A DNA stretch of 64,000 nucleotides from Anaerolineales bacterium (GTDB taxonomy: Bacteria; Chloroflexota; Anaerolineae; Anaerolineales; Villigracilaceae): positions 1,257 through 65,256 of the forward strand of contig JAGVAO010000067.1 of NCBI GenBank assembly GCA_020060235.1, read 5' to 3'. This document shows, one piece after another, positions 3,866 through 21,048 of the stretch. Numbering within the stretch: position 1 is the first letter of the stretch; each line of letters starts with the position of its first letter. The notes under the pieces were generated by a model, which saw only the letters and a program-made list of their open reading frames with translations, was not told where the DNA came from and ran no database searches. Both the position numbers and the translations under genes were made by a program.

Positions 3866-3910
3866 TTTTTTGGCGTATAATCATCGCACCTTCCAGATTC
3901 TTTGCAATGT

Positions 3911-3939
3911 TTGACGCATAAATCCCTTGCATGTATAAT
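3911..3939 (+). promoter_or_regulatory. sigma70-type promoter for the 3981-18754 operon
   Basis: TTGACG (3911-3916), a 17-nt spacer, then TATAAT (3934-3939), about 42 nt upstream of the first start codon. Confidence 0.55.
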
Positions 3940-3980
3940 CAATCTATTCATTTTAATGCCCGCGTATATGGGCGCAGAGG

Positions 3981-4808
3981 ATGCTTATGGCTCTTCGGGG
4001 CAACTTGCGAGATTTTACAGTCACCCAGCTATTGAATCTGATAAACCTGGCCCATAAGACAGGCACTTTGGTTATCGAAGCCCCTAACGAAGTTGCCAAA
4101 GTCTCTTTTCGCGATGGAAAACTGTCCTACGCCCAAATCGGGCAGGACGACGGCCATCTCGCCTCCATCCTGCACAAGACCAGCCGTCTGACGACGGGGC
4201 AGTTGCGCGCCATTCAACTGCGTGCCACCCACGTTTCAGACAAAGAGCTGGGCTTGTTGCTGATAAACGCCGGGCATATGACCCAGGATGACATCCTGTC
4301 GTCCTTGCAGTCTTATTTCACCGATATGGTGCGGCGGCTGTTTACGTGGATAGAAGGCTCCTTTCGCTTCGAGAACGACATGATGCCGCCACCCGACCGC
4401 ATCACAGTGCGGCTCGATCTGGAAAACCTGATTATCGAAGGCGCGCGCCAATTGCGCGAGTTTGAGCAGTTGCAGGATGAAATTCCGAGCCTTGAGATGG
4501 CCCTGCGCTTTACCGAGCGTCCCGGCTCGAACCTGCAAAAGATGAACTTAAGCGTCGAAGAGTGGCGGGTGGTTTCTTATATCAGCCCCAAGAATACCAT
4601 CCAGCAAATCGCTTCGGCGGCCAAAATGGGCGATATGGAAATTCGCCGGATTGTTTATGGCCTTATTCAAGCGGGTCTGGTCGAAGTCGTGCGCCCGGAC
4701 GGGGCTGCGCCTGTTCAGGAAAGGGCGCGTCCAGCCATCCCGGTCCAGAACCGGGAAGAGCAGAAGTCTTTGGTCAACCGCCTGATTACGCGTATTCGCT
4801 CGATATAA
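3981..4808 (+). CDS. DUF4388 (PATAN-like) domain protein
   Basis: The N-terminus GNLRDFTVTQLLNLINLAHKTGTLVIE...VSFRDGKL is the signature of DUF4388. An alternative start at 3987 has a better GAGGA spacing. Confidence 0.7.
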   Translation: MLMALRGNLRDFTVTQLLNLINLAHKTGTLVIEAPNEVAKVSFRDGKLSYAQIGQDDGHLASILHKTSRLTTGQLRAIQLRATHVSDKELGLLLINAGHMTQDDILSSLQSYFTDMVRRLFTWIEGSFRFENDMMPPPDRITVRLDLENLIIEGARQLREFEQLQDEIPSLEMALRFTERPGSNLQKMNLSVEEWRVVSYISPKNTIQQIASAAKMGDMEIRRIVYGLIQAGLVEVVRPDGAAPVQERARPAIPVQNREEQKSLVNRLITRIRSI

Positions 4809-4830
4809 ATTTATTTGAGGATAAGTACTT

Positions 4831-5373
4831 ATGCAAACGGTCAAAATGGTCGTCACCGGCCCTTTCAGCGCTGGCAAAACGGAATTTATCCGCTCAGTGA
4901 GTGAAATTGACGTCGTCGCTACTGAACGCAAGATTTCATCTGACTCTGAAAGAGCGGTGAAACAGGCAACTACGGTGGCCATGGACTTTGGCCGTATCAC
5001 CGTGGATGAAGACCTGGTGCTCTACCTGTTTGGAACTCCCGGCCAGAAGCGTTTTGACTTCATGTGGGAAATCCTTTCCGAAGGGATGCTCGGGTTCATC
5101 GTCATGGTTGACAGCACCCGGCCAGAAACCTTCCGCGAAGCGCGCTCCATTCTCGAAACTTTCCGCGCTTACGCCCCCACGCCCTATGTCGTAGCCGCCA
5201 ACAAACAGGATGTTGATGATGCCTGGGAATTGGAAGATATGCGTCATGCCTTGCGCCTTGACGGCAAGGTAAAACTGCTTCCGTGCGTTGCCACCGATAA
5301 AGATACGGTCAAAAACGTCCTGCTCGAGTTGCTTTACAGCATCCTGGCAGAGATGGAAGGCAACGAAAAATAA
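4831..5373 (+). CDS. small Ras-like GTPase of the conservon CvnD / COG2229 type
   Basis: P-loop GPFSAGKTEF, switch II FGTPGQKRF and NKxD as AANKQD are all present. The core TTVAMDFGRI...LYLFGTPGQ is typical of CvnD-like 'ATP/GTP-binding proteins'. GAGGA RBS. Confidence 0.8.
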   Translation: MQTVKMVVTGPFSAGKTEFIRSVSEIDVVATERKISSDSERAVKQATTVAMDFGRITVDEDLVLYLFGTPGQKRFDFMWEILSEGMLGFIVMVDSTRPETFREARSILETFRAYAPTPYVVAANKQDVDDAWELEDMRHALRLDGKVKLLPCVATDKDTVKNVLLELLYSILAEMEGNEK

Positions 5374-5395
5374 ACATCGTAGATAGAATGCTGCT

Positions 5396-6196
5396 GTGTC
5401 CTCGATTACTACTGACCAGGGAATAGTTCATTATGAAGTGTATGGGCGCGGCCGCCCTGTTATTTTGCTTCACGGCTGGCTCGGCTCGTGGGGGCTGTGG
5501 CAGGATACAATGGCCTACCTGGGGCGCTCTTATCGCACCTATGCGATGGATTTTTGGGGGTTTGGCGAATCAGGCAAGAAACGTGATACCTATGCCGTAC
5601 AGGATTTTGTCAGCCTGGTGGACCAGTTTATGGACCGCCTGGGCATTACCGAAGCGCCACTGATTGGTCACAGCATGGGCGGTACGGTTAGCCTGTCGGT
5701 TGCAATCCAGTATCCCCAGCGCGTCAGCAAAGTGGTTGTGGTTGGTTCACCGATTGTCGGTTCGTCCCTGGCTTTCCCGCTCAAACTGGCGGGTTATCGC
5801 TTTATTGCGTTCATGCTTTTTAATATGATGTGGGCTTTCCGGGCTGGCATAAAAGTCGCTTCCCCGTTTATCTGCGCCGACCCGCAATTCCCGACCATGA
5901 TGGACAAGGACCTTTCAAGTACCACGCTTGAATCGTTTCTGCGCAGTATCGCCTCTCTGCGGCGCACCGACTTGCGTCCTAAACTCTCCCAGTTGCAAAT
6001 TCCGATTATGGGGATTTATGGCGGACGGGATAACATCGTCCATCCCATGCAGTGGCAGCCACTGTTGCAGGGCGCCCCGCAGACCAAGGTCGTTTATTGG
6101 GAACGTGCCCAGCACTTTGTCATGCTGGACATGGCGAAAGAGTTTACCGAAACGGTCAGAATATTTTTAGATGAAGAAGAGCAAAGCGAAGGATGA
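5396..6196 (+). CDS. alpha/beta hydrolase with an intact Ser-Asp-His triad
   Basis: HGWLGSW oxyanion region, nucleophile elbow GHSMGG, GGRDN (Asp) and AQHFVMLD (His). GTG start. It is a paralogue of 17969..18754. Confidence 0.8.
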   Translation: MSSITTDQGIVHYEVYGRGRPVILLHGWLGSWGLWQDTMAYLGRSYRTYAMDFWGFGESGKKRDTYAVQDFVSLVDQFMDRLGITEAPLIGHSMGGTVSLSVAIQYPQRVSKVVVVGSPIVGSSLAFPLKLAGYRFIAFMLFNMMWAFRAGIKVASPFICADPQFPTMMDKDLSSTTLESFLRSIASLRRTDLRPKLSQLQIPIMGIYGGRDNIVHPMQWQPLLQGAPQTKVVYWERAQHFVMLDMAKEFTETVRIFLDEEEQSEG

Positions 6197-6825
6197 ATCC
6201 TTCTACCAACATTTACCATTATCCAAACCAAATGGCGCGTATCCTGCTCTTGTCCGGCGACGAGATTTTGGGGCAGGCTGGCATGTCGGCAGTGTTGAAC
6301 GCGATTCCTGGCGGGTCTCGTTTTGTTGAAAATTATCCCCCTGCAAATACTAATCTGGAATTTCCCTTTGAACTTGTCGCCGGTTTGCAAGCCTCGCTCG
6401 AGTTGATTTATGGCCCTCACGGCGGGCGGGGGTTATCCATGCGCATGGGGCGCACATCTTTCCAGCATGGGCTATCTGAGTTCGGCCCGCTCTTTGGCCT
6501 GACAGACCTGGCGTTTCGCCTGCTGCCCCTCAAGACCAAACTGAGGGTTGGCGCAAACGCCTTTGCCGAAATTTTCAACAAACATAGCGACCAGCGCGTC
6601 CGCATCGAAGACCGGGACACACAGTTATACTGGCACATTGAGCGTTGCCCGGTTTGTTGGGGACGCAAGACCGAAGCCCCGGCCTGCCACCTGGCGGTTG
6701 GCTTGTTGCAAGAGGCTTTATATTGGGTAAGCGGTGGTAAGATGTTTAATGTAGAAGAAACGCAATGTTGCGCCGTGGGCGATTCTCAATGCAGCATTTT
6801 GATTGATAAAACTCCACTGGGGTGA
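6193..6825 (+). CDS. V4R (4-vinyl reductase-like) small-molecule-binding domain protein
   Basis: C-terminal Cys pattern ERCPVCWGRKTEAPACHLAVGLLQEALYWVSGG...QCCAVGDSQCSILI, typical of V4R domains (BchJ, XylR/DmpR N-termini). The start overlaps the previous stop (ATGA). Confidence 0.7.
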   Translation: MNPSTNIYHYPNQMARILLLSGDEILGQAGMSAVLNAIPGGSRFVENYPPANTNLEFPFELVAGLQASLELIYGPHGGRGLSMRMGRTSFQHGLSEFGPLFGLTDLAFRLLPLKTKLRVGANAFAEIFNKHSDQRVRIEDRDTQLYWHIERCPVCWGRKTEAPACHLAVGLLQEALYWVSGGKMFNVEETQCCAVGDSQCSILIDKTPLG

Positions 6826-6829
6826 ACCC

Positions 6830-8101
6830 ATGCTAAAAATAATTTTACAGGCCAAAAGACCCATCCTCCCCTTCAATGAACCTGCCCGCGATTTGCGCAT
6901 CCAGAACCAGCCGCTCTGGTTGTTGCAGCGCAATGCCCTTGCGCCTTACGTCACCCGCGAGTTGGAAATCCCATCCAATGCGCGTTTGCCGCAAATTCAG
7001 GAACCGATGCTGGTTTACCGCGACAATTTGTTCTTTGACCGGCATTTTATCGATGAGTTTATCCGCCTGGCTGTGCAGAAGAACCGTCCCGTGCGGGCGG
7101 CTTTTTCGATAGACGACCCGGCTTTTCGTGAGCACGCGCTGCCCTTGTCGGTATCCTATACGCCTGCCGGTAATTTATACCTGGCCGACATGTGGTACTA
7201 CCCTCGCGGCCCGGTAGCCGATGTAGACCCGCTGGTGATAGACATGCAGTCGCGGGAAGTGGGTTATTATCATGTGCCGTCTTACATGGCCGGGGAACGC
7301 GGCGACCTTGTCTTCCAGGTTCCGTTGCGCGCCATGCTGGCAATTGATACCTGGGTACACATCTTCATCGCCGACGTGGTCTTTGGTTTGTTCAAGCGCG
7401 GCAATCGCTTTGAAATTCGCCTGAGCAACGACCTGGCTTACAAACTGAAAATCATCAGCACCGCGATTTACGAGGGCCGCCAGATTCTGGAGTGCTCTGA
7501 ACTGGTGCAAATTGGCAAGAATTGCGTCATCGACCCACACGCTGTTATTCACGGACCGACAACGATTGGCGATAATGTCACTGTCGGCGCGGGCGCAGTC
7601 ATCGAGAACTGCATTATTGGCAACAATGTCAACGTGTCGCAGGATTGCCAGTTGATGCTCTCCGTCGTTGGGGACGGCACCTTCCTGCCGTTCAAGGCCG
7701 CCCTGTTTATGACCACCATCATGGACAACTCGATGGTTGCCCAAAATACCTGCCTGCAAATGTGTGTGGTGGGCCGAAACACATTTATTGGCGCAGGCTC
7801 TACGTTTACAGACTACAATCTCATTCCATCCACCATTCGCGCGTTGGATGGAAACGACGAACTCAAGCCATCCAACCGCCCCGTGTTGGGAGGGGCGGTT
7901 GGACACAATTGCCGCATTGGCGCAGGGATGATAGTTTACCCGGCCCGCACCATTGAGTCGGATGTCGTTCTGGCGGCGTCAAAGGAACGTCGGGTAATCG
8001 ATAAAAATATCAGATTTGAGGATAGCGACCACCATAAAATGAAAAACGCCGGCCAGCATAAAGTGCTTTACCAAAAACAACAGGATTTAGAGTCGTGGTA
8101 A
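6830..8101 (+). CDS. left-handed beta-helix (hexapeptide-repeat) protein, acyl/nucleotidyl-transferase-like
   Basis: Hexapeptide repeats IGKNCVIDPHAVIHGPTTIGDNVTVGAGAVIENCIIGNNVNVSQDC... The ATG at 6830 lies 4 nt after the upstream stop. The ORF track begins at an upstream TTG (6803). Confidence 0.65.
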   Translation: MLKIILQAKRPILPFNEPARDLRIQNQPLWLLQRNALAPYVTRELEIPSNARLPQIQEPMLVYRDNLFFDRHFIDEFIRLAVQKNRPVRAAFSIDDPAFREHALPLSVSYTPAGNLYLADMWYYPRGPVADVDPLVIDMQSREVGYYHVPSYMAGERGDLVFQVPLRAMLAIDTWVHIFIADVVFGLFKRGNRFEIRLSNDLAYKLKIISTAIYEGRQILECSELVQIGKNCVIDPHAVIHGPTTIGDNVTVGAGAVIENCIIGNNVNVSQDCQLMLSVVGDGTFLPFKAALFMTTIMDNSMVAQNTCLQMCVVGRNTFIGAGSTFTDYNLIPSTIRALDGNDELKPSNRPVLGGAVGHNCRIGAGMIVYPARTIESDVVLAASKERRVIDKNIRFEDSDHHKMKNAGQHKVLYQKQQDLESW

Positions 8102-8104
8102 AGC

Positions 8105-9196
8105 ATGGATACATTTGCATTTATCATCCATCCTATTGACCCGAAGCGCGACGTCAGTAGGAAATACCCCTTGCTTGGTAAGTATCTCAGCGAAAAACAA
8201 ATCAACTTCTTCTCCACTTTTTTCCCGCCCGTGTATCTCTCTGAAATTGAGGGCATTGTTTCACAGGCGACAGGCAAGCAAATCAAGGGCTGGTTTCTGG
8301 CCTGCCCTTTGACCCCCCGGCGGATGTTGGAATTGCCGGAAAAAATGGTGTATCATAAAATCATTCAGACCGGCCAAATGGCCGAGAATCTGGGCGCAGA
8401 TATTCTTGGTTTGGGCGCTTTCACTTCAGTGGTCGGCGATGCCGGTGTGACGGTTGCCAAGTCTCTCGATATTCCGGTTACAACTGGCGATTCTTATACG
8501 GTGGCCGTTGCGGTTGACGCAATCAAAAAAGCCGCTGAGCTGATGGACATTCGGTTGGAATCGGCTACAGCAGCGGTCGTTGGCGCGACAGGCACGATAG
8601 GAAAAGTTTGCGCAGAACTTCTCGCAGACGCCGTAGGTGAGTTATACTTAATAGGTCGCCGTGCTGATGCGTTGCAGGCTTTAAAAGAACGGCTCGAGCA
8701 GCAAGGTACAGCGCAGATTTTGACCAGCACAAGCATGGATGTACTCTCTCGCGCGCAGTTGATTTTGACTGTTACCAGCGCAATCCATGACGTCATCGAA
8801 CCGCAGTACTTGCAGCCTGGCAGCGTCGTCTGCGATGTGGCCCGCCCTCGTGATGTATCTGCAATGGTCGCGGCGGCGCGGAACGATATACTTGTGATTG
8901 ACGGCGGTATGGTGGATGTGCCGGGGCCTGTCGATTTTCACTTTAATTTCGGGTTCCCTGCGGGCAAGGCTTATGCCTGCATGGCCGAGACGATGGCCCT
9001 CGCGCTTGAAGGCCGCTTTGAGGACTACACCCTCGGGAAAGATGTTTCAAGGGCCCGCGTCGAAGAAATATCTGCAATTGCAAGCAAACATGGTTTTTAT
9101 TTGAGCGGTTTTCGCTCTTTTGAAAAAGAAGTCACTGATGAAACAATTGAGGCCATACGCCGCAAAGCAAAAACTGCCCGTCGGCGTCAAAATTGA
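8105..9196 (+). CDS. acyl-ACP reductase (AAR)-like NAD(P)-dependent oxidoreductase
   Basis: Collinear with my memory of cyanobacterial aldehyde-forming AAR. FAFIIHP matches FGLIGHL, GLGAFTSVVGD matches LGGFTSII, VAVVGATGTIGKVCAELL matches VAVVGATGDIGSAVCRWL, and YACMAETMALALEG matches FACFAEAMLLEFEG (the catalytic-Cys position is conserved). Confidence 0.55.
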   Translation: MDTFAFIIHPIDPKRDVSRKYPLLGKYLSEKQINFFSTFFPPVYLSEIEGIVSQATGKQIKGWFLACPLTPRRMLELPEKMVYHKIIQTGQMAENLGADILGLGAFTSVVGDAGVTVAKSLDIPVTTGDSYTVAVAVDAIKKAAELMDIRLESATAAVVGATGTIGKVCAELLADAVGELYLIGRRADALQALKERLEQQGTAQILTSTSMDVLSRAQLILTVTSAIHDVIEPQYLQPGSVVCDVARPRDVSAMVAAARNDILVIDGGMVDVPGPVDFHFNFGFPAGKAYACMAETMALALEGRFEDYTLGKDVSRARVEEISAIASKHGFYLSGFRSFEKEVTDETIEAIRRKAKTARRRQN

Positions 9197-9208
9197 TGGA
9201 GGCTCGTT

Positions 9209-10114
9209 ATGGGAAAAGCCCGCCTTTTAATTACCGAAGATGATGTTGACATCTCCAACATGCTCAAAATATATTTCTCTGGCTTGGGCTATGATGTGGA
9301 TGTTGCCATGCGCGGCTCTGACGCGCTGGAGAAAACGCGCCAGGTCTTGCCCCACCTTATCGTCCTCGATATCATGCTGCCCGATATTGATGGCTACGAG
9401 GTTTGCCGCAACCTGCGAATGAACACCCGCACCAGCCATATCCCGGTCATTTTCCTGACCCAGAAGGACGAGCGCAGTGACCGCTTGCAGGGCCTCGAAC
9501 TGGGCGCGGATGATTATATTACCAAGCCTTTCGACATCGAGGAACTAAAACTGCGCGTCCAGGGCGCGATTCGTCGCTCGGAGCGCGAGAGTTTGACAGA
9601 CCCCCGTTCCGGCTTACCGGCGGGACGGCTCATCGAAGAGCAGTTACGCAAGATTATCCGCGAAACGGGCTGGGCCTACCTTGATATGCGCATCAACAAC
9701 TTTGACCCGTTCAAAGACGTTTATGGCTTTGTCGCCGGGGACGATGTTTTGCGCTTTACCGGCATGTTGATTGGCGAAGTGCTCGACGAATTGGGCACCT
9801 CCTCCGATTTTGTCGGCCACGCAGGCGGGGATAACTTCATCATCATTACTACTGAAGGGGCCGCCCCTGTGATTGGTGAGCGTCTGAAAGAACGTTTTGC
9901 CGAGCAAGTTCTGACCCACTACAATTTTATGGACCGCCAGCAGGGCTATATTATGGCACCCGGCGCAGAAGGACAGAGCGAAAAATTCCCACTTATGACG
10001 CTCGCAGTGGGGACCGTGATGCCGACCAAACAGTCCTTTGCTGATATTCGTGAGATAACGGAATTGGCTGCCGAAGCGCGTCGTCAGGATGCCGCTAACG
10101 CGGTAAAAGGATAG
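9209..10114 (+). CDS. response regulator: receiver domain plus a degenerate GGDEF-like domain
   Basis: REC domain (LLITEDDVD...LIVLDIMLPDIDG...ITKPF) followed by a GGDEF fold (DMRINNFDPFKDVYGFVAGDDVL...). The signature reads HAGGDNF instead of RxGGDEF/GGEEF. Confidence 0.75.
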   Translation: MGKARLLITEDDVDISNMLKIYFSGLGYDVDVAMRGSDALEKTRQVLPHLIVLDIMLPDIDGYEVCRNLRMNTRTSHIPVIFLTQKDERSDRLQGLELGADDYITKPFDIEELKLRVQGAIRRSERESLTDPRSGLPAGRLIEEQLRKIIRETGWAYLDMRINNFDPFKDVYGFVAGDDVLRFTGMLIGEVLDELGTSSDFVGHAGGDNFIIITTEGAAPVIGERLKERFAEQVLTHYNFMDRQQGYIMAPGAEGQSEKFPLMTLAVGTVMPTKQSFADIREITELAAEARRQDAANAVKG

Positions 10115-10120
10115 CATCCA

Positions 10121-13100
10121 ATGTTTGATGGGCAATCTTTTGCCTTGGGCATGGGTTTGCTTATTATTGGGCTGGTTTTTGTTTTGGGCGTTTGGTTTGT
10201 CTTGCGGGTAGTGCCGCGCGTCAAACCCGCCGAACAACAACCGGCGCAATTTGTTGCAACCCGCCTGCAAGAGCACGAAGATGCCATCCTGATTGTGCAA
10301 ACAGGCGGGCGTATCACCTACCTGAACGAAGCTGCCAAAGAGTTGTTCGACCTGGCAGAGGGGGAAAATCCGAACCTCGACCGCATAGGCCGCCGTGTGC
10401 GGCCCGGGGAAACATTTTTAGAAATATGCGCCTCACAGGGTCAGGCGCGTTTTTCAATTAATGGCAGGTTGGTTGAGGCCAATTCTTATCCGATTCCAGG
10501 TTCAGTTCCGTCCATGATGGTTGCCATTCGGGTGCTGAAAAGCGCTCTGGCAGTTGCCAGCCAGGACGGTCTTTCTGAAAACGCCCTCAAGACAGTTACC
10601 GATTTTGGTCAGGCTGTCACTTCTGACTTAAGCCTTGAAGCCACTATTCAATCCATCCTGATTCATGTTGAGCAACTGGTTGCCTCGGACTTTTTGGAGT
10701 TGAAGGTTTGGAATGAAGCGCTGGAAAGTTTTACCTTTTACCGCATGAGCGGCGCGGAAGGAACGGTTCGCAGTGTCAGGGCAGAGTCGGAAACCCAGTT
10801 TGGGGAATATGCAAACTATATTTTTTCTGAAAAGCGCGAACTTGTTCTCGAAAATACCCGATTAAACCCCCTGGTGCGCTTTGATTCAAATGGCCGCCAG
10901 GTGCCGCCGATGGGTTCTTACATCGGCCTGCCTTTGCAGACATCCGACCAGTTTGTTGGCGTGCTGGAGGTGGGCGTAGTACAGGGTGACGGTTTCTCGA
11001 ACGATGATGTTGCCATTTTGAAAATGTTGAGCGGGCAGGCGGCGGTTGCCATCCGCAATGCCCGCCTGTATAAGTCGCAGGAGAACCTGACCACACAACT
11101 GCTCGGGTTGACGAAACTATCCCAGGCGGTTGGCTCTCTGCGCGATATTAGCGACCTTTTTACCAGCCTTGTTGACGGGCTGGTTCCCTTGTTTAATGTA
11201 AACATTCTTGGATTTTTGCTTTACGATGAGCAGCGCCGTTCGCTTGAGGGGCAATCCCCGTTCTTCGGGCTTTCCTCCCAGGTTGTTGATATTTACAAGA
11301 CCGTGATTCGGCCCGGCAGCCCGGCAGAGAAGCTTGTTTTCAGCCAGGACGTTCTTACCAGCCAGGATGCCTCCATTGACCCGGTATGGGACGAACTGGG
11401 CCTGCGCGATATGGCCCAGGCGGCCAGTATGCGCGACACCACCATGATTCCGCTTATTTCGGCGGGCCGTTTCCTGGGCTACCTGCAACTCTCGAATCAT
11501 AAATACGGCAACCTGAATTTAAGCCCGGATGAATTGCAACTGTTGAACCTGGTTGCCAACCAGGTGGCAGCCATGATTGATAACGCGCTTCTCGTGCAAC
11601 AAGCGCGTCAGAGAAACCAGCGTTCTGAAGCCATGCGTCGTTTGGCTAGTATGGTGAGTTCCAATGCGACACTGGACGAAGTGTTGACATTTGCCCTCCA
11701 GGAAGCCTCGCAACTTTTGCGCGCTGAGATGGCCGCCACTTTCCTGCTTAACGAGCGGGAGGGGGTCATGCGCGCCCATATTCCTTCAGTTTATGGTCTT
11801 GATGCTGAAAAGGTCAAACCGCTGGCGCGGATTAATGTCAAGCCCTCTGCTTTTCACCAGACGGTTGCGGGCAGCCAGCGCGCTTTTCTTTCGGGCAATC
11901 TTTCAAAAGACCGCAGGGTTTTGCCGCTTTATCGCGCTTTTGTAAGAAGGCTGAAAATTGAGTCGTGTATTGTTATCCCGCTGGTTGTGCGCGGACAGGG
12001 AATTGGCGAGTTGATGTTCGGCTCACAAAACATGGATTTGTTCAATAACCATGATTTGCAAATGGCGGCCATTATCGGCAGCCAACTGGCGATTGCGATT
12101 GAAAATTCGCGCTACTCGACCCAGTCGCAGGATAATTTGTATTTGCGCTCGGAACAAACAGGCAATGTTAGCCGTATCTCGCGTGAACTGGCCGTCACGA
12201 CTGATTTGAAGGAATTGTTGCGCGTTATCTACGACGAAAGTATGCGTATTTCCCGCGCCGATTGCGGCCTGGTCCTGTTTTTCGATGTCTCCGGCGAAGA
12301 AATGCCGGAGAATCCCGTCGTTACCATGCACCTGGGTCATTCCCCCGAAACCGAATCGTTCTGGCAGCAAACAGCCATCCTGGAAAAACAGGAACCCCTT
12401 CGTGTCGAAAAACCCGGGGAGACTGTACCGCATCCGGGCGTCAATACGGTGCTGGTTGTGCCAATGGCCTACCAGGATTTCGTGCTGGGCGTCATCGAAT
12501 TGCATTCCTTTGAAGAAGGCTTTTTCAACGAAATCCTGGTTGAAACCATTCATACCCTGGGCATCCAGGCGGCCATCGCCATTTCCAACGCGCTGCGTTT
12601 GCGGGAACAAAAACAACGCCTGGAATTGCTCCGCAGCCGCTCGGAAACCCTCTCGACCCTGTTTGAAACCTCACGCGCTTTGCGCCCCGACCAGCCGTTG
12701 CAAGACAGGCTGCAAATCATTGCCAGCGGCATTCAACGTTCGACCCCCTTTGATGTCATCCTGATTAGCCTTTACGAGGCTGAAACGACCTCGCTAAAGC
12801 GGGTTACTTCAGTTGGCGTCCCCGACGAGACCTTTGCAAAATTACAGGAACGTCAGCCGTCCTGGGAAAGCCTGGCGCAATTGCTCAGGCCCGAGTTTGA
12901 ACACGGTACCAACATCTACTTTATCCCCAATGACCGCATGCCGGTCGTTTCGCGGGATGTGCAGGTGGTGACCTTGATGGAAGACTCGAGCGATGTGCCC
13001 AACGCCTGGCATCCTGAGGACCTGTTGCTTGTCCCGGTCTTCGACGGGCAGAATAATCCCCTGGGCTTGATAAGCGTCGATTCCCCGCGCGACGGTAGGA

Positions 13101-16100
13101 GACCCGATGCCGTTGCCATGGAGGCACTTGAGATTTTTGCCTCCCAACTCCAGGTGGTCATCTCCAATGCCAGCCAGTTTGCCGAACTGGACAAAGAAAT
13201 TTCGGGCCTGTCTTTTGAAGTTCAGCGGCAAAAGAGTCTGGTCAGTTATAGCCAGCGCAACCTGCCGGTATTGCTCAACAAAGACCTTGAGCAGACCGTT
13301 GCGATTAACTATCTTAACCTGCGCGGGCGGCATATCCGCGCCGGGTTGGGCCTGACCGAGGCGATTAGCCGTCAAATCGACCTGGTATCTGCCCTCGACG
13401 CGCTGGGGCGGCAAATTTTGTTCAGTTTTGACATGACAGTTTCCATCGTGGCGAGGGAAACTGCCGAGGGGCCGCAAATTGTGCATGTGTTTGGCGGTGT
13501 GCCGCGCGGTGTCAACCCTGACGCGATGTTTGGCCAGCGCAACCCCTTGCGCCAGTGCTTGCAAACCGGCGAGGCGATAATTTCTCCCAACCTCGATGAA
13601 GACGAAACCTGGCACGATACGCCTTTCCTGACCGCGCTGAAAACCAAATCATTTATCTGTCTTCCAATGGTGGTGAACAACCTGCCTGTGGCGGCTGTCC
13701 TGGCTACCAACCCCGAACCGATGCCGATGTTGTCGAAGGATGACTGGCAGGTTTATGTTCAAATTGGCAGGCAGCTTTCGGTCATTGTCCAGAATATCGG
13801 TTTGTTGAGCGAAACCCGACAGCGCCTTGAAGAAGTCAACCTGTTGCTGGACTTTAGCCGTCGCTTAAGCGGCCTTAACCCACAGGGAATTTTGCAATCG
13901 CTGCTTGATAGCGCCTTGCGCGTTGTCTCTGCCGCCCATGCAGGTGTTGTCTTGCAGTGGGACGAAGTCGATGAAGTGCTTGTCCCGCGCGCCGCCGCCA
14001 ATTATGTAGACAATGACAGCACAATGGAAATTACCTATCGCCTGTCGGAGGGTTTGCCGGGCCGGGTGTTTGCCAGCCAGCGCGCGCAAATTGTCGATGA
14101 AATCAACTTTACGTCCGACTACAATCTTTCGGCTGAAGGCTTGTTGCGCTACCGAAAGGCCACCGGTGGACGTTTGCCTGTTTCGAGCATTGCCATTCCC
14201 ATCCAGACCAATGAACGCAATATGGGTATTCTCGTCCTCGATAACTTCAACACCACTGCTGCGTTCAGGCAGGAGGATGAGGCCATTCTTTCGTCCCTGA
14301 CCCAGCAGGTTGCCCTCTCGCTCGAAAATGTCCGCCTGGTGCAGGCAACCCAGGAGCGCGCTGCCCAACTCCAGGCGTTGAACCAGGTCGCGGGTGCGAT
14401 TAGTTCTTCGCTCAACCGTGAGGAACTGGTCGCTTCGTTGCTCGACCACCTTAGCGCGGTAATTGCCTACGATACGGCCATCCTGTGGATGCGTGACGAG
14501 CAGCAGATGGTGGTGGCCGAAGCGCGCGGCTTTAGTGATACCGAAGACCGCAAGGGTTTGACGGTTTCGGTTGAAGACAGTGTCCTGCTCAGGGAAATGA
14601 CCGGTTCGGGCCAGGCAATTTCGGTTGGCGACGTTCGCGCCGATGAGCGTTTCTCCTCGCTGGTCGAGGCTGAGTACCTTTCGTGGTTGGGCCTGCCGAT
14701 TATGGTAAAGGGCAATGTCATCGGCGTTATTGCGGTTGAGAAGACCGAATCCTATTACTATAGCATTGAGCAAATTCAACTGGCTGAAACTTTTGCCAGC
14801 CAGGCGGCGGTTGCCCTGGAAAATGCCATCCTGTTCGAGGACAGCATGAGCCGCACAGCGGAGCTGGACGAACGCTCGCAACGCCTGGCTTTGCTGAATC
14901 AGTTCTCCTCCGATTTGAGCGGCTCGCTTAATGCGGACCAGGTACTACGGCTGACAGCCAGCCAGCTTATGCGCGCAGTCGGCGCCGATTCGGCCATGAT
15001 TTTGGTGCTCGACCGTGACGAGAAGTCTTTCCTGTTGGCTGTCTTGCCGGAAGAAAACGAACGGCCCTCCATGTATCGCGCCTTGCCGGCATCTTCGATT
15101 ATTTCCGAATTGCGCGAGTCGCAAACGGTTTATGTAGTCGATGACATCACAGCGCACCGGGAACTGCAATCCTTCTCCGAATTCCTTGAGGGTTCGCGTT
15201 CCCTGCTCATCCTGCCCGTCTTTAGCAGCCAGAGCAACTATGCCATATTGGCGATGACCACCCAGCCGCACATGTTTTCTTCGACAGAGATTGAAATTGC
15301 CCGCACACTGGGCAACCAGGCTGCTATCGCGCTTGAAAATGCTGACCTGTACCAATCGACCGTGGCGACTGCCGAACGGTTGGCCATCCTGAACCAGGTA
15401 AGTTTTGAAATCGGTTCGAACCTCGACCCCGAGGAAGTTTACCGCTCGATTCACGAGGCGGTTGGCAAACTGATGCCTATCGACGCCTTTGTGATTGCCC
15501 TGCATGACGAAGAAACCAACGAAGTCGACGGTGTCTACATTGTCGACTTGGGACAGCGCATCACCGGTGTGCGCCTGCCCTATGGACAGGGATTGAGCGG
15601 CAAGGTGATTGCCTCCGGCGAACCCCTCTTGACCCTGACTCCCGCTGAAGCCGACGGCCAGGGCGCTGTAACGGTTGGGGAAAGGGGTACCCCGAACTCG
15701 ATTGTCGCCGTCCCCATGATTCAGGGAAACAAAACCATTGGCATGCTCTCGGCCCAGAGTTACCAGCATAACGCCTACTCTGAAAATGATATCCAGATGC
15801 TCAGTACCCTGGCCAACCAGGCGACTGTGGCTGTCCAAAACGGACGCCTGTTCTCTGAAACCCAACAGTTGGCGGCCACCCTTGAACAGCGCGTCATTGA
15901 ACGCACTTCCGAACTGGAACGCGAGCAACGCAACACTGAAACCCTGTTGCGCATTCTGACCGAGGTTTCGGCCAGCCTCGACCTCGACCGCGCCTTGAGC
16001 CGAACCCTGGCCTTGCTCAACGATGCCATCGGCGCCGAACAAGGTACCATCATGCTTGTCAACCCCGAAGACAACATGTTGCATTATCGGGCGGGTTATG

Positions 16101-17566
16101 GCTACCTGAGCGACACTTCTGAACAGACCGATTTGCGACCCCACCAAAGCACCTTTAAGCTAAAGGTGGGTGAAGGCCTTGCTGGTTGGGTGGTCAAGAA
16201 CCGCCAGCCGGTTATGGTGGAAGACTTGTATACCGACCCGCGCTGGGTGGTTTCGCAAGGCTCGCAAAATCATCGCAGCGCTGTGATTGCTCCGCTGATG
16301 GTTGGCGAAGACATCATTGGCGCCATCATGGTTTTCCACCGGCGGCTGGCCTATTTCACCGATGACTCTCTTGAAATGGTGCAGGCGATTGGTTCGCAGG
16401 TGGCAATTGCGATTAACAATGCCCAACTGTACGAACTTATCCGCGACCAGGCCGAGCGTCTTGGCTCCTATCTGCGCTCGCAGCAAATGGAAGCCAGCCG
16501 CCAGACAGCCATCCTCGAGGCGGTTGCCGACGGTGTCCTGGTGACCAACTCATCTAACGACATCAGTTTTGTCAACCCGTCTGCGGAAAAAATTCTTAAC
16601 ATTAGCCTGCCACAGGTTGAAGGACGTTCGCTCGAAAACTTTACCGGCCTGTTTGGCAAAAGCTCCCAGACCTGGATGCAAACCGTCCGCGAATGGTCTG
16701 AAGACTCGACCGGCCACACCGGCGAGACCTATGCCGAGCAAATCAGTCTTGATGATGGGCGGGTGGTGCTGGTTCACCTTGCGCCGGTTATCTGGCAGAG
16801 TGAGTTCCTGGGAACGGTATCCATTTTCCGCGATATTACCCATGAAGTCGAAGTCGACCGGTTAAAATCGGAATTCGTTGCCACCGTCAGCCATGAATTG
16901 CGCACGCCGATGACCTCCATTCGCGGGTATGTCGATATCCTGCTCATGGGTGCGGCTGGTGAGTTGACTGAAAGTCAGTTACACTTTTTGGACATTGTCA
17001 AAAACAACACCGAGCGCCTGAATGTCCTGGTCAACGACCTGCTCGACATTTCGCGCATCGAAACGGGGCGCGTTGTCCTCAGCCTGCAACCGATGGATTT
17101 GCGCGAGGTGGCCGAGGAAATTGTGGCTGATGTTTTGCGCCGCTCGCAGGAAGAAAACAAGCCGATGGCGGTCGTGGTGGATGCCGACCCCAAACTGCCG
17201 ATGGCGATGGTTGACCCCGACCGAATTCACCAGATTATGGGCAACCTGGTCGATAATGCATATAATTACAGCCCGCCCGACGGACACATTGCCATTCGCA
17301 TTCACACCCAGAATGGCGATGTGCAGGTGGATGTCCGTGATAGCGGGGTCGGCATTCCCCTGGAAGACCAGGACAGGGTCTTCGAGCGTTTCTTCCGCGG
17401 CGAAGACCCGCTGGTGCTGGCGACCCCCGGAACCGGCCTTGGGCTTTCGATAGTTTCACAACTGGTCGAAATGCATCATGGAAAAATTTGGATGACCAGT
17501 TCCGGCATACCCGGTGAAGGCAGCACGTTCTCCTTCACCGTGCCAGCCGAAAAGAACGAGGAGTAG
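10121..17566 (+). CDS. giant multi-GAF sensor histidine kinase (TM, PAS-like, 11 GAF, PAS, HisKA, HATPase_c)
   Basis: 2481 aa. N-terminal TM helix. Eleven recurrences of the GAF-terminal helix motif (e.g. LSGQAAVAIRNARLY, TFASQAAVALENAILF, AIGSQVAIAINNAQLY). H-box SEFVATVSHELRTPMTSI, N box MGNLVDNAYNY and G boxes DSGVGIP / GTGLGLSIV. Confidence 0.9.
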   Translation: MFDGQSFALGMGLLIIGLVFVLGVWFVLRVVPRVKPAEQQPAQFVATRLQEHEDAILIVQTGGRITYLNEAAKELFDLAEGENPNLDRIGRRVRPGETFLEICASQGQARFSINGRLVEANSYPIPGSVPSMMVAIRVLKSALAVASQDGLSENALKTVTDFGQAVTSDLSLEATIQSILIHVEQLVASDFLELKVWNEALESFTFYRMSGAEGTVRSVRAESETQFGEYANYIFSEKRELVLENTRLNPLVRFDSNGRQVPPMGSYIGLPLQTSDQFVGVLEVGVVQGDGFSNDDVAILKMLSGQAAVAIRNARLYKSQENLTTQLLGLTKLSQAVGSLRDISDLFTSLVDGLVPLFNVNILGFLLYDEQRRSLEGQSPFFGLSSQVVDIYKTVIRPGSPAEKLVFSQDVLTSQDASIDPVWDELGLRDMAQAASMRDTTMIPLISAGRFLGYLQLSNHKYGNLNLSPDELQLLNLVANQVAAMIDNALLVQQARQRNQRSEAMRRLASMVSSNATLDEVLTFALQEASQLLRAEMAATFLLNEREGVMRAHIPSVYGLDAEKVKPLARINVKPSAFHQTVAGSQRAFLSGNLSKDRRVLPLYRAFVRRLKIESCIVIPLVVRGQGIGELMFGSQNMDLFNNHDLQMAAIIGSQLAIAIENSRYSTQSQDNLYLRSEQTGNVSRISRELAVTTDLKELLRVIYDESMRISRADCGLVLFFDVSGEEMPENPVVTMHLGHSPETESFWQQTAILEKQEPLRVEKPGETVPHPGVNTVLVVPMAYQDFVLGVIELHSFEEGFFNEILVETIHTLGIQAAIAISNALRLREQKQRLELLRSRSETLSTLFETSRALRPDQPLQDRLQIIASGIQRSTPFDVILISLYEAETTSLKRVTSVGVPDETFAKLQERQPSWESLAQLLRPEFEHGTNIYFIPNDRMPVVSRDVQVVTLMEDSSDVPNAWHPEDLLLVPVFDGQNNPLGLISVDSPRDGRRPDAVAMEALEIFASQLQVVISNASQFAELDKEISGLSFEVQRQKSLVSYSQRNLPVLLNKDLEQTVAINYLNLRGRHIRAGLGLTEAISRQIDLVSALDALGRQILFSFDMTVSIVARETAEGPQIVHVFGGVPRGVNPDAMFGQRNPLRQCLQTGEAIISPNLDEDETWHDTPFLTALKTKSFICLPMVVNNLPVAAVLATNPEPMPMLSKDDWQVYVQIGRQLSVIVQNIGLLSETRQRLEEVNLLLDFSRRLSGLNPQGILQSLLDSALRVVSAAHAGVVLQWDEVDEVLVPRAAANYVDNDSTMEITYRLSEGLPGRVFASQRAQIVDEINFTSDYNLSAEGLLRYRKATGGRLPVSSIAIPIQTNERNMGILVLDNFNTTAAFRQEDEAILSSLTQQVALSLENVRLVQATQERAAQLQALNQVAGAISSSLNREELVASLLDHLSAVIAYDTAILWMRDEQQMVVAEARGFSDTEDRKGLTVSVEDSVLLREMTGSGQAISVGDVRADERFSSLVEAEYLSWLGLPIMVKGNVIGVIAVEKTESYYYSIEQIQLAETFASQAAVALENAILFEDSMSRTAELDERSQRLALLNQFSSDLSGSLNADQVLRLTASQLMRAVGADSAMILVLDRDEKSFLLAVLPEENERPSMYRALPASSIISELRESQTVYVVDDITAHRELQSFSEFLEGSRSLLILPVFSSQSNYAILAMTTQPHMFSSTEIEIARTLGNQAAIALENADLYQSTVATAERLAILNQVSFEIGSNLDPEEVYRSIHEAVGKLMPIDAFVIALHDEETNEVDGVYIVDLGQRITGVRLPYGQGLSGKVIASGEPLLTLTPAEADGQGAVTVGERGTPNSIVAVPMIQGNKTIGMLSAQSYQHNAYSENDIQMLSTLANQATVAVQNGRLFSETQQLAATLEQRVIERTSELEREQRNTETLLRILTEVSASLDLDRALSRTLALLNDAIGAEQGTIMLVNPEDNMLHYRAGYGYLSDTSEQTDLRPHQSTFKLKVGEGLAGWVVKNRQPVMVEDLYTDPRWVVSQGSQNHRSAVIAPLMVGEDIIGAIMVFHRRLAYFTDDSLEMVQAIGSQVAIAINNAQLYELIRDQAERLGSYLRSQQMEASRQTAILEAVADGVLVTNSSNDISFVNPSAEKILNISLPQVEGRSLENFTGLFGKSSQTWMQTVREWSEDSTGHTGETYAEQISLDDGRVVLVHLAPVIWQSEFLGTVSIFRDITHEVEVDRLKSEFVATVSHELRTPMTSIRGYVDILLMGAAGELTESQLHFLDIVKNNTERLNVLVNDLLDISRIETGRVVLSLQPMDLREVAEEIVADVLRRSQEENKPMAVVVDADPKLPMAMVDPDRIHQIMGNLVDNAYNYSPPDGHIAIRIHTQNGDVQVDVRDSGVGIPLEDQDRVFERFFRGEDPLVLATPGTGLGLSIVSQLVEMHHGKIWMTSSGIPGEGSTFSFTVPAEKNEE

Positions 17567-17568
17567 GA

Positions 17569-17943
17569 ATGGCAAAAATTGTAGTTGCTGAAGACGAACC
17601 TGATATTCGAGAGTTGATAGCCTTTACCCTGCGTTTTGCCGGGCACGAGGTGATTACAGGTGCCAATGGGTTGGAAGGTTTTGAACTGGCAAAAGAACAC
17701 AAGCCTGACCTGGTTATGCTGGATGTTCGTATGCCCAAAATGACGGGCTATGAAGCCTGCCAGAGCATTAAGGCCACAGCAGAAACGGCCCACATCCCGG
17801 TTGTCTTCCTTTCGGCCAAAGGCCAGGAATCGGAAATAGAACAGGGTCTCTCCGTTGGCGCGGAGCAGTACCTGCTCAAACCTTTCGCGCCCGACCAGTT
17901 GACCGAACAGGTGCGCGAAGTACTGGCGAAGTTCGGAAAATAA
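17569..17943 (+). CDS. single-domain (CheY-like) response regulator
   Basis: 124 aa with VAEDEPDIRE...DLVMLDVRMPKMTG...LLKPF. The start is 2 nt after the kinase stop. GAGGAG RBS. Confidence 0.85.
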   Translation: MAKIVVAEDEPDIRELIAFTLRFAGHEVITGANGLEGFELAKEHKPDLVMLDVRMPKMTGYEACQSIKATAETAHIPVVFLSAKGQESEIEQGLSVGAEQYLLKPFAPDQLTEQVREVLAKFGK

Positions 17944-17968
17944 ACGAAACGGATACTTTCCTGACACA

Positions 17969-18754
17969 ATGAGCGCGATTCTTCTTGACGGTGGCATTGT
18001 TCATTACGAGGTGATTGGCCGCGGGCGGCCTGTCATCTTCCTGCATGGCTGGGTTGGGTCATGGCGTTATTGGATTCCCGCCTTGCAGTCAGCCTCCACC
18101 GATTTTCGCGCCTATGCAGTCGATTTGTGGGGATTTGGCGATACGGCCCGTGAGACAGAACGTTACAGCCTCGATAAACAGGTGGCCTTGCTCGACCAGT
18201 TCTTGCAGGAACTCGGTATGGGGAAGGTTGCCCTGATTGGGCACGGATTGGGCGCAATCGTCGGCCTGCATTTCACCCTGCGCCACCCCAACACCGTTGA
18301 CCGCATCATGGCGATTAATACCCCGGTCGATATCGACGGTGTCAATGCCCGTATGCGAAACGATACCCTGGCGAACCTGGCCGACTGGCTGCTTTCAAAA
18401 AACTCCGAGTCTGAACCGGCCCGCGAGGATGGAGTCCGCGCTGACCCGTTGGCAGTCCAGGCATCTTTCAATAATCCTGAGCAATTTAATTTGACTGGTA
18501 AACTGCTGGGCATGAACAACGCCTGCCTGATGGTGTACGGGCAAAACGACCCGGCCATTACCCTGCCCATGCTTGACCCCAACCTGACCCCCTCGATGAT
18601 TCACCTGCTGCAACTCGAACAGGTCGGGCACTTCCCCATGTTGGACGATTCTGCGGGTTTCAACCGCCTGTTGATTGACTTCCTGGCCCTGCCTTCGGGC
18701 GATAGCCCGCGCAACCTGCAAATGAAGGAAGAGTGGAAGCGCCGCGTGCGCTAA
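17969..18754 (+). CDS. alpha/beta-hydrolase-fold protein lacking the nucleophile Ser (GHGLGA)
   Basis: Paralogue of 5396..6196 (GIVHYEVIGRGRPVIFLHGWVGSW vs GIVHYEVYGRGRPVILLHGWLGSW). The nucleophile elbow reads IGHGLGA (Gly in place of Ser), while the Asp (GQNDP) and His (VGHFPMLD) positions are kept. Confidence 0.8.
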   Translation: MSAILLDGGIVHYEVIGRGRPVIFLHGWVGSWRYWIPALQSASTDFRAYAVDLWGFGDTARETERYSLDKQVALLDQFLQELGMGKVALIGHGLGAIVGLHFTLRHPNTVDRIMAINTPVDIDGVNARMRNDTLANLADWLLSKNSESEPAREDGVRADPLAVQASFNNPEQFNLTGKLLGMNNACLMVYGQNDPAITLPMLDPNLTPSMIHLLQLEQVGHFPMLDDSAGFNRLLIDFLALPSGDSPRNLQMKEEWKRRVR

Positions 18755-18781
18755 CATCGGAATTTAATTCGATTTAAAGAA

Positions 18782-18806
18782 AACGCGCCGAAAGGCGTGT
18801 TTTTGT
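18782..18806 (+). terminator. rho-independent terminator ending the 11-gene operon
   Basis: 'aacgcgcc-gaaa-ggcgtgtt' stem (one G:U pair) followed by TTTTTG. Confidence 0.65.
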
Positions 18807-18884
18807 TGCGTATGGTCAGCCTGCCGCCTCGGTAACGATTACTTGACTTTCATAGGGTGGAAAACAGTTATTGGAATTTTATTC

Positions 18885-18913
18885 TTGACAAACCGATTTC
18901 TTATGGCGACAAT
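18885..18913 (+). promoter_or_regulatory. candidate promoter for the GH18 gene, giving a near-leaderless mRNA
   Basis: TTGACA (18885-18890), a 17-nt spacer, then GACAAT (18908-18913). The ATG at 18920 lies only 6 nt downstream. Confidence 0.35.
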
Positions 18914-18919
18914 GAAGCC

Positions 18920-21046: not shown

Positions 21047-21048
21047 AT

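Follow-up and report, generated by a model that had tools for sequence, protein, structure and literature searches.

A conserved ten-gene operon of Anaerolineales that joins an MglA-type GTPase, a multi-GAF histidine kinase and enzyme-like proteins

What is the function of an operon in which a small GTPase, a giant sensor kinase and several enzyme-like proteins are encoded side by side? The question is raised by a locus in a 64,000-nucleotide stretch of DNA (the window) from an Anaerolineales bacterium (contig JAGVAO010000067.1, positions 1,257 to 65,256; coordinates below are those of the window unless a locus number precedes them). A preliminary description of the locus, made from the sequence alone, counted eleven genes, but the open reading frame (ORF) list of the window contains ten same-strand ORFs at 3981-18754 (+), and the earlier gene list itself names only ten. 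We conclude that the locus encodes a genuine signalling system, not described before, in which known families are put together in a new arrangement, because the operon has been kept almost unchanged across many Anaerolineales species. The established part of this picture consists of gene content, synteny, residue conservation and folds. The features of the operon are listed below.

3911-3939, + strand: candidate sigma-70-like promoter, TTGACG-17-TATAAT (11/12 consensus positions)
3981-4808, + strand: PATAN (DUF4388/PatA_N) protein with a C-terminal winged-helix-like domain (Pfam PF14332, E = 4e-25)
4831-5373, + strand: small GTPase of the MglA family, with the catalytic type of groups 2-5, 180 aa (Pfam ATP_bind_1/Ras/Arf)
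5396-6196, + strand: alpha/beta-fold serine hydrolase ABH1, predicted active (Abhydrolase_1, E = 5e-29)
6193-6825, + strand: stand-alone V4R protein, 210 aa, accessory (Pfam V4R PF02830, 40.5 bits vs cut-off 31)
6830-8101, + strand: GlmU/ST0452-like two-domain protein with a left-handed beta-helix (LbH), 423 aa (Hexapep, E = 2.5e-16)
8105-9196, + strand: AAR/PigE-N-type NAD(P)H-dependent acyl-thioester reductase, predicted active, accessory, 363 aa (NCBIfam, PDB)
9209-10114, + strand: response regulator with a receiver and a degenerate GGDEF-like domain, REC-GGDEF (Response_reg E = 7e-27; GGDEF E = 1.4e-8)
10121-17566, + strand: histidine kinase, 2481 aa, with one transmembrane segment, a PAS-like region, 11 GAF, PAS, HisKA and HATPase_c domains (Pfam)
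17569-17943, + strand: single-domain CheY-like receiver (Response_reg, E = 6.5e-29)
17969-18754, + strand: Ser-less alpha/beta-hydrolase paralogue ABH2, a pseudo-hydrolase (elbow GHGLGA)
18779-18808, + strand: intrinsic-terminator-like hairpin and U-tract (folding: 11 bp, -16.1 kcal/mol, z = -3.4)

Conservation and layout of the operon

Genomes, one per GTDB species, were scanned with an alignment of 12 LbH sequences, and the best 80 of at least 582 matching stretches were examined. These 80 loci, selected on LbH, all belong to metagenome-assembled genomes of Anaerolineales/Chloroflexota, with LbH identities of 73-92%. The ten window proteins were compared with the 80 loci by tblastn, and presence was counted where the flanking sequence sufficed. 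The order PATAN-GTPase-ABH1-V4R-LbH-reductase-REC/GGDEF-GAF kinase is complete in 56 of the 80 species-representative genomes, and most of the others are cut by contig ends. The values for the individual proteins are as follows.

PATAN: present in 67/70 assessable loci, median identity 71%
GTPase: present in 70/73 assessable loci, median identity 90%
ABH1: present in 73/76 assessable loci, median identity 75%
V4R: present in 73/78 assessable loci, median identity 56%
LbH: present in all 80 loci, which were chosen by LbH, median identity 75%
Reductase: present in 70/77 assessable loci (absent from 7), median identity 76%
REC-GGDEF: present in 72/74 assessable loci, median identity 81%
Kinase: present in 66/67 assessable loci, median identity 53%
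CheY: median identity 68%

The preliminary description had named gene-neighbourhood conservation as a check on the operon, and since the genes are co-conserved in these 56 genomes, the objection that they keep company in one genome only falls away. A metagenome scan with ABH2 gave 80 contigs, with the CheY gene directly upstream in 63 of the 64 that could be assessed, and in these the CheY-ABH2 pair comes after the kinase. The flanks vary by genome: cytochrome c maturation (ccm) genes lie upstream in locus L001, in place of the LysM and TPR genes of the window. Because the flanking genes differ between genomes, the ten-gene block, as judged from these sequence comparisons, behaves as a unit. 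Furthermore, the arrangement is far beyond chance, since it is the same in dozens of species. The operon appears to be vertically inherited and has been seen so far in Chloroflexota only, mainly in Anaerolineales. A 4.2-kb contig, L008 (CAZPUT010000081.1), which carries ABH-V4R-LbH-reductase at 79-84% identity (V4R 60%), has been placed in a "Candidatus Nitrotoga sp." bin; misbinning is the most likely explanation, in preference to a transfer to a betaproteobacterium.

Divergent versions of the operon were reached via distant LbH homologues. The LbH proteins of L085, L086, L088 and L090 are 44-57% identical to the window protein.

L085: PATAN-GTPase-ABH-LbH-REC-GAF kinase (2940 aa)-CheY, without V4R and without reductase
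L086: without V4R, with a kinase of just 845 aa and with ABH2 last
L088: full set plus an Rce1-like (CPBP) protease
L090: without V4R, with an Rce1-like (CPBP) protease and an extra HATPase_c_2 protein
L089: LbH followed by REC-GGDEF, with the upstream PATAN and GTPase absent

Some close relatives of the window operon are also incomplete. L064 has PATAN-GTPase-ABH1-V4R-LbH-ABH2, and the reductase and the kinase half are absent, while L069 and L076 have LbH with the regulator/kinase half, and the GTPase half is absent. The GTPase half and the kinase half are separable, and each retains LbH (L064 vs L069, L076 and L089). The recurrent set is PATAN, GTPase, ABH1, LbH, REC-pseudoGGDEF, GAF kinase, CheY and ABH2. 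V4R and the reductase are accessory, and LbH is the sole gene common to every variant examined. The Rce1-like membrane proteins, of the CPBP/CAAX-protease family, are encoded between the REC-GGDEF and GAF genes (L088:13532-14425 and L090:12611-13495). The HATPase_c_2 gene (L090:19865-20293) is a small one of the anti-sigma-type kinase family, and in the same locus the GAF array is split from the kinase core.

The layout of the locus in the window is that of a compact cluster. The recomputed gaps along the ten genes are 22, 22, -4, 4, 3, 12, 6, 2 and 25 nt, in agreement with the range of -4 to 25 nt given previously. The promoter candidate at 3911-3939 is the best-scoring in the region and lies 42 nt 5' of the first gene. 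The terminator-like hairpin was found by folding, the pattern scan having not reported it, and is directly followed by UUUUUGUUG. Both boundaries of the preliminary description, the candidate promoter and a downstream terminator-like hairpin, were thus borne out at the level of sequence. We infer that the ten genes are co-transcribed. A second promoter-like site, TTGACA-18-TATATT (11/12 positions), is present at 9246-9275, just inside the REC-GGDEF gene, the seventh. Because of this site, transcription may also start internally within the seventh gene. Note that the site coincides with the boundary at which some genomes separate the GTPase/enzyme half from the regulator/kinase half. No Rfam match was obtained over 3000-20000, with neither a riboswitch nor a leader RNA. 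Transmembrane prediction gave a segment in the kinase alone and none in the other nine products.

The ten products

The domain identities that had been given for all ten products agreed with Pfam, NCBIfam and motif analysis. The GTPase is the most conserved product of the operon, at 86-98% identity across species. Its closest PDB match is Thermus MglA (3t12), and its motifs are G1 GPFSAGKT, G2 TT (ATTVAMD), G3 GTPGQ and G4 NKQD, with G3 and G4 invariant in 77/77 orthologues. It has the P-loop G1, the Asp-free G3 (T/G)xPGQ and the G4 NKxD of the MglA family. It is not a group 1 protein, since G2 is TT and not an Arg finger, G3 is GTPGQ and not TVPGQ, and the operon has no MglB. MglA groups 2-5 have GTPGQ, and Thr where group 1 has the Arg finger, while in conservon group 2 the G4 motif is NxFD and the conservon kinase has a C-terminal LPxR (PMC4316618). 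Compared with these group definitions, GTPGQ, the G2 Thr and NKQD place the GTPase, at the level of its motifs, in the MglA family but not in the CvnD type. The previous designation as a conservon-type, CvnD-like GTPase therefore holds at the family level; it does not hold for G4, nor for the kinase, which lacks both HAMP and a C-terminal LPxR. An MglB or Roadblock gene was found in or near the operon at none of the inspected loci (the window, L001, L085, L086, L088 and L090). Direct lipidation of the GTPase has no sequence support, as the protein has neither an N-terminal Gly nor a terminal Cys.

The Pfam match of the PATAN protein (88.6 bits vs a cut-off of 25, residues 6-160) is shared by 36/36 orthologues. 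Translation probably begins at the ATG at 3987, because the orthologues are mostly 273 aa long and invariant from M3 onward. With Pfam, no receiver domain was found in the 275-aa protein, so it is not a PatA-type response regulator. An AlphaFold2 (AF2) model with pLDDT 77 has a winged helix at residues 174-237, and weak winged helix-turn-helix matches in Pfam were obtained for 15-20 of the 36 orthologues. The ten top Foldseek matches of the model are all NPRL2/NPRL3-type subunits of GATOR1/SEAC, with weak scores (best E = 1.4e-3, TM 0.25). NPRL2 and NPRL3 are longin plus winged-helix subunits of the complex that is the GTPase-activating protein (GAP) for Rag GTPases. This weak resemblance of the modelled fold is kept as a lead only. 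Homology of PATAN to Roadblock/MglB was rejected, as a comparison by hhalign between the PATAN alignment and MglB of M. xanthus (a sequence 100% identical to 6h5b_B) gave a probability of 0.2%. Likewise, no Roadblock or longin signal was seen in the PATAN proteins in Pfam at E up to 10.

The pairing of PATAN with the GTPase is an already known association, since PATAN genes occasionally adjoin group 1 and 5 MglA genes (PMC4316618). In Synechocystis, the PATAN domain is an output module that binds PilB1/PilC (bioRxiv 10.1101/2021.06.11.447907), and Tad-type pili are carried and transcribed by Anaerolineae (PMC4877987). By analogy, a pilus or envelope target of the GTPase/PATAN pair is plausible.

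The start of the LbH protein is the ATG at 6830, not the TTG at 6803 of the mechanical ORF, and homologues of 423-425 aa align from 6830. The first ~220 residues have no Pfam match. An AF2 model from a 37-sequence alignment has pLDDT 92.9 and pTM 0.92, and its whole-chain Foldseek matches are ST0452 (E = 1.9e-15), an archaeal sugar-1-phosphate nucleotidyltransferase/acetyltransferase, as well as GMPPA/GMPPB, VTC1, GlmU and eIF2B gamma/epsilon. Because the matches to ST0452, GMPPA/B, GlmU and eIF2B extend over the whole chain, the modelled protein combines an N-terminal nucleotidyltransferase-like domain with a C-terminal left-handed beta-helix. The N-terminus has PFNEPAR in place of the GxGTR nucleotide-binding signature, with the Arg not conserved. 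It keeps RDNLFF, which we take to be reminiscent of the GDNIF of RmlA. The invariant residues in the N-domain are hydrophobic, and the alignment of the beta-helix part shows no conserved His base. The protein scores 40 bits against the glmU equivalog, with a cut-off of 367; it has the fold of the GlmU/ST0452-type bifunctional enzymes and falls outside the equivalog. The preliminary description had called this hexapeptide beta-helix protein acyltransferase-like; that label needs correcting, since the two domains together resemble GlmU/ST0452, and the nucleotidyltransferase signature has degenerated. By analogy with GMPPA and eIF2B, the N-domain may be non-catalytic or re-purposed.

The LbH family forms more than 120 database clusters at >=78% identity, and the named members are all Chloroflexota. 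Its public labels are often "multidrug transporter", and also "DapH/DapD/GlmU-related" and "UDP-N-acetylglucosamine diphosphorylase". The sequences do not support these names, because there is neither a transmembrane segment nor a nucleotidyltransferase signature. Distant LbH homologues occur elsewhere. In L087:691-3083 and L084:8889-11302, homologues of 27-31% identity lie beside an adenosylhomocysteinase-like NAD-binding protein of ~355 aa. The two NAD-binding partners are 41% identical to each other, and of the two contigs one appears to come from a cyanobacterium (DUF4335, DUF3038) and the other from a myxobacterium (DUF2379). The LbH and adenosylhomocysteinase-like pair is a separate conserved two-gene module. 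These neighbours have no similarity to the operon reductase, and LbH plus reductase was rejected as a phylum-spanning module. Homologues of 35-37% identity on two unrelated contigs (L083:3385-7873 and L091:6294-11243) lie by B12-binding radical SAM, prenyltransferase/squalene-hopene-cyclase-like and cupin genes, a neighbourhood that suggests a terpenoid- or lipid-type metabolic cluster.

The two hydrolases differ at the catalytic site. ABH1 has the nucleophile elbow GHSMGG in 78/78 sequences, and the Asp and His of a Ser-Asp-His triad are conserved. No NCBIfam model reached its cut-off for ABH1, and the best PDB matches, among the 60 listed, are arylesterases, perhydrolases, epoxide hydrolases and meta-cleavage-product hydrolases. 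Assignment of ABH1 to the receptor hydrolases of the RsbQ/D14/KAI2 type was rejected, as none of these is among the same 60 matches. ABH2 is 43% identical to ABH1 over residues 1-120, with a diverged cap region, and lacks the GxSxG serine that ABH1 has. Among 80 metagenomic relatives of ABH2, 76 have Gly at the nucleophile position, 3 have Asp and 1 has Ser, and the triad Asp and His are retained.

The reductase matches PigE in NCBIfam with E = 1e-66, but at 225.9 bits vs a cut-off of 850 and over model positions 2-360/837 only. The class-III aminotransferase domain is absent, so the protein is not a PigE. The match to the long-chain acyl-ACP reductase TIGR04058 (E = 1e-32) likewise remains below the cut-off, at 113.6 bits vs 449.7, and no ADO-like gene was found among the ten operon products. 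The PDB matches are 4ppm at 3e-41 and 6jzq at 1e-25. A GATGTIG motif is present, and the Cys of the catalytic motif [YF][AG]C[MV]AE is conserved in 74/74 sequences. The N-terminal domain of PigE reduces a thioester (PMC8341465). The V4R protein has a cysteine cluster, CxxC...C...C..C (CxxC and three further Cys), that is conserved in the sequences of its orthologues, and comparison with PDB sequences gave no significant match. V4R is a homologue of TRAPPC3 (PMC2253512, PMC10933270), and hydrophobic ligands are bound by V4R and TRAPPC3 proteins (PMC10933270).

The kinase has Pfam matches to GAF in 11 stretches, to PAS_9, to HisKA and to HATPase_c. Its single transmembrane helix is N-terminal, at residues ~7-30, and its length in relatives ranges from 845 to 2940 aa. 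No HAMP match was found with Pfam, and the sole LPxR is at residue 1312, with none at the C-terminus. The phospho-acceptor Asp motif of the CheY-like receiver, DVRM, is conserved in 57/57 sequences, and the receiver Asp of the REC-GGDEF protein is also conserved. The Pfam match of the GGDEF-like domain is partial (model positions 3-112/161). Its motif is GGDNF in 62/77 sequences and GG[DE]EF in none, and the I-site RxxD is absent, with TSSD upstream instead; the domain does not qualify as a diguanylate cyclase.

The operon thus mixes conserved enzymes with conserved pseudo-enzymes. Because ABH1 and the reductase have invariant active sites, and those of ABH2, the GGDEF-like domain and the LbH N-domain are consistently degenerate, this pattern of residues favours small-molecule binding or processing over simple decay.

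The genes that flank the operon in the window are unrelated to it, with TPR and LysM proteins upstream and a GH18 hydrolase and an APH-type kinase downstream. The G+C content is 0.45-0.48 at 19001-20000 and 21001-22000, whereas the operon is at ~0.53-0.56 and values elsewhere reach 0.65. The GH18 gene falls within the first of these dips, and the low G+C may reflect a foreign origin of the genes just downstream of the operon. Farther downstream are a fused chorismate-binding/aminotransferase-IV gene (PabB-PabC-like; 22481-24199, -), a Ser/Thr protein kinase (24796-26580, +), two ABC exporter half-transporter-type genes (28060-33514, +) and a xanthine-dehydrogenase-type molybdoenzyme pair (33641-37557, +), with no obvious tie to the operon. 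ORFs of 576-763 aa without a Pfam match at E up to 1e-8 are found at 29898-31628 (+), 29859-31616 (-) and 37734-40025 (+). The first two are long and overlap on opposite strands, which leaves the coding strand of this region ambiguous.

Comparison with known systems

Is the locus a conservon? Like the CvnA-CvnD conservons of Streptomyces, it combines in one operon a sensor histidine kinase and an MglA-family GTPase with G3 GTPGQ, and in both the GTPase is probably part of the signalling output. However, Roadblock (CvnB) and DUF742 (CvnC) are absent from the Pfam scans of the ten products, as had been noted previously, and from the neighbours of L001, L085, L086, L088 and L090. The GTPase has NKQD where conservons have NxFD, and the kinase has one transmembrane segment, PAS and 11 GAF domains, with neither HAMP nor a C-terminal LPxR. 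Two receivers are present here and none in conservons, and five enzyme or pseudo-enzyme genes are added. In its sequence, the locus lacks all of the conservon-specific features.

The operon resembles the PATAN-MglA/MglB neighbourhoods (Makarova 2006; Wuichet and Sogaard-Andersen 2014) and the MglA/MglB switch of Myxococcus in that a PATAN gene adjoins an MglA-family GTPase and there is a link to response regulators. It differs in having no MglB, and its GTPase has no intrinsic Arg finger of the group 1 kind. Furthermore, those neighbourhoods are variable (groups 1 and 5), whereas that of the operon is fixed and far larger. In the cyanobacterial PatA-type regulators (PixG, PixE and PatA), PATAN also works with CheY-like receivers and is the output domain that binds PilB1/PilC. 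The operon PATAN, in contrast, is separate from the receivers and fused to a winged-helix-like domain, and there are no CheA/MCP genes.

The enzyme-like proteins also have known relatives. The reductase belongs to the same fold family as cyanobacterial AAR and the PigE N-terminal domain and has their NAD(P)H motif, GxTGxIG, and their catalytic Cys, but it lies far below both NCBIfam cut-offs, lacks an aminotransferase domain, has no ADO partner encoded in the operon, and is found in a signalling operon, where it is dispensable in some lineages. The LbH protein shares the two-domain architecture of GlmU, ST0452, GMPPA-GMPPB and eIF2B gamma-epsilon in a confident model and retains RDNLFF. Unlike the GlmU/ST0452 enzymes, it has PFNEPAR for GxGTR and falls far below every equivalog cut-off, and on these points it appears closer to the regulatory GMPPA and eIF2B. 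The RsbQ-RsbP and D14/KAI2 receptor systems use an alpha/beta hydrolase in signalling. Here too a hydrolase is encoded inside a signalling operon, where it possibly processes or perceives a ligand, and by analogy the paralogue that has lost its nucleophile could act purely as a receptor. The sequences show no specific relationship to these systems, and the operon has neither a PAS-PP2C nor an F-box partner.

The preliminary description knew of no system of this composition. We found no description of this gene combination in the searchable literature, but one of its parts, PATAN beside an MglA-family GTPase, had already been noted (PMC4316618).

Possible function of the operon

We tentatively favour, with somewhat less than even confidence, a composite signalling operon in which the multi-GAF kinase and the two receivers are coupled to an MglA-type GTPase/PATAN switch, with an acyl-thioester/ester metabolite branch and with LbH as the hinge. 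The membrane-anchored kinase would sense in the cytoplasm, since all of its sensory domains (PAS and 11 GAF) are predicted to be cytoplasmic, and would phosphorylate the CheY-like receiver and the receiver fused to the non-catalytic GGDEF-like domain. The MglA-family GTPase and the adjacent PATAN/winged-helix partner would form a second switch; elsewhere in bacteria, MglA-type GTPase/PATAN pairs position or regulate envelope machines, e.g. type IV pili. The small-molecule branch would consist of enzymes, namely the predicted-active serine hydrolase and, in most lineages, the AAR/PigE-type thioester reductase, together with pseudo-enzyme and binder modules, namely the degenerate LbH, the Ser-less hydrolase and, in most lineages, V4R. 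This branch would convert or bind an acyl- or lipid-derived metabolite, and the metabolite information would feed the GTPase/phosphorelay decision, with LbH between the two halves. What we infer here is which partners take part in phosphotransfer, what kind of ligand is involved and what the output in the cell would be.

Several points weigh against this reading. Since the operon can do without V4R and without the reductase, the ligand branch is not uniform. The gene neighbourhoods of distant LbH homologues (22-37% identity) are purely metabolic. Genes for pili, motility or division are absent both from the operon and from the annotated part of the window, and the output could equally be transcriptional, because the PATAN protein carries a winged helix. 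Finally, the hydrolases and LbH match no characterised equivalog, so the acyl/lipid assignment is a family-level analogy (BioH, LpxA/D and AAR use acyl-ACP).

A special case of the composite operon is a closed loop, as put forward in the preliminary description, in which the reductase, LbH and the hydrolase make a hydrophobic aldehyde- or lipid-derived signal. Its sensors would be V4R, the GAF array and/or the dead hydrolase, and the GTPase and the receivers would carry the output. The loop would account for the catalytic residues kept in ABH1 and the reductase and for the conservation of a dead ABH1 paralogue with a diverged cap region; V4R/TRAPPC3 proteins bind hydrophobic ligands (PMC10933270), and all of the proposed genes are co-conserved in one operon. 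However, its proposed producer and sensor are the dispensable ones, which weakens it: the reductase is missing in 7/77 close genomes and in L085, and V4R is missing in L085, L086 and L090 while the other genes persist. V4R is also among the fastest-evolving genes of the operon (median identity 56%). In addition, LbH has no nucleotidyltransferase signature in its N-domain and no conserved His base was seen in its beta-helix part, and the operon has no export or uptake component. We consider the closed loop unlikely.

Alternatively, the enzymes could be the output, as a lipid- or envelope-modifying pathway of esterase, acyl-thioester reductase and LbH transferase, the activity or localisation of which is controlled by the kinase, the receivers and the GTPase. 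The metabolic clusters around distant LbH homologues (L083 and L091; L084 and L087) are in its favour, and the AAR, PigE, BioH and LpxA/D families all act on acyl thioesters (PMC8341465 and established knowledge). But three of the five enzyme-like proteins are conserved pseudo-enzymes, the reductase is dispensable, none of the nine non-kinase proteins has a transmembrane segment, and the operon encodes no glycosyltransferase, flippase or lipid carrier. We consider such a pathway unlikely as well.

A further possibility, which we regard as quite unlikely, is that the non-catalytic proteins (PATAN with its winged helix, LbH and V4R) regulate the GTPase as a GAP, guanine-nucleotide exchange factor (GEF) or scaffold in place of MglB/Roadblock, with small molecules as allosteric cues only. 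The analogy would be with eukaryotic NPRL2/3, eIF2B gamma/epsilon and TRAPP. It is consistent with the absence of MglB/Roadblock in or near the operon at every inspected locus, with the NPRL2/NPRL3-type proteins that make up the ten best Foldseek matches of PATAN, with the match of the LbH model to the regulatory paralogues GMPPA and eIF2B gamma/epsilon alongside true enzymes, with the homology of V4R to TRAPPC3 (PMC2253512, PMC10933270) and with the GTPase being the most conserved gene of the operon. On the other hand, the PATAN fold matches are weak (E = 1.4e-3, TM 0.25, model pLDDT 77), hhalign of PATAN with MglB gave a probability of 0.2%, LbH occurs also without the GTPase half, and V4R is accessory.

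A more elaborate form of this idea, and in our view a very doubtful one, is a prokaryotic GTPase switch regulated by pseudo-enzymes and lipid-binding proteins on a longin/NPRL-like PATAN platform, with the GMPPA/eIF2B-like LbH and the TRAPPC3-like V4R as GEF, GAP or scaffold and with the hydrolase pair and the reductase writing and reading an acyl-derived cue, possibly even reversible acylation. The Rce1-like (CPBP) protease in L088 and L090 would fit such a switch. If true, it would be a bacterial counterpart of the eukaryotic coupling of Rag/Rab/Ras-type GTPases to metabolite and lipid status.

Last, independent units adjacent by chance, without shared function, could be read from the internal 11/12 promoter-like site at 9246-9275 and from the few genomes with the halves apart (L064, L069 and L076), but this is extremely improbable and chance juxtaposition is excluded by the synteny, since order and strand are the same in 56/80 species genomes with most of the others truncated contigs, the order persists with differing flanks where LbH is just 44-57% identical, and the gaps are <=25 nt.

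The composite signalling operon thus remains the reading that we favour. In sludge, sediments and digesters, Anaerolineales are abundant filamentous organisms, and their cell biology is almost uncharted. The operon is among their best-conserved multi-gene signalling units, and its fixed arrangement links an MglA-type GTPase without a known GAP or GEF, a classical phosphorelay, and active and dead enzymes. A practical point is that the LbH family is widely mis-annotated as "multidrug transporter". If the proposed couplings are real, the operon would be a tractable entry to the regulation of the group 2-5 MglA GTPases, whose catalytic mechanism is unknown, and it would show pseudo-enzymes serving as bacterial sensors. 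It could also show whether V4R, longin-like and eIF2B-like GTPase partners predate eukaryotes.

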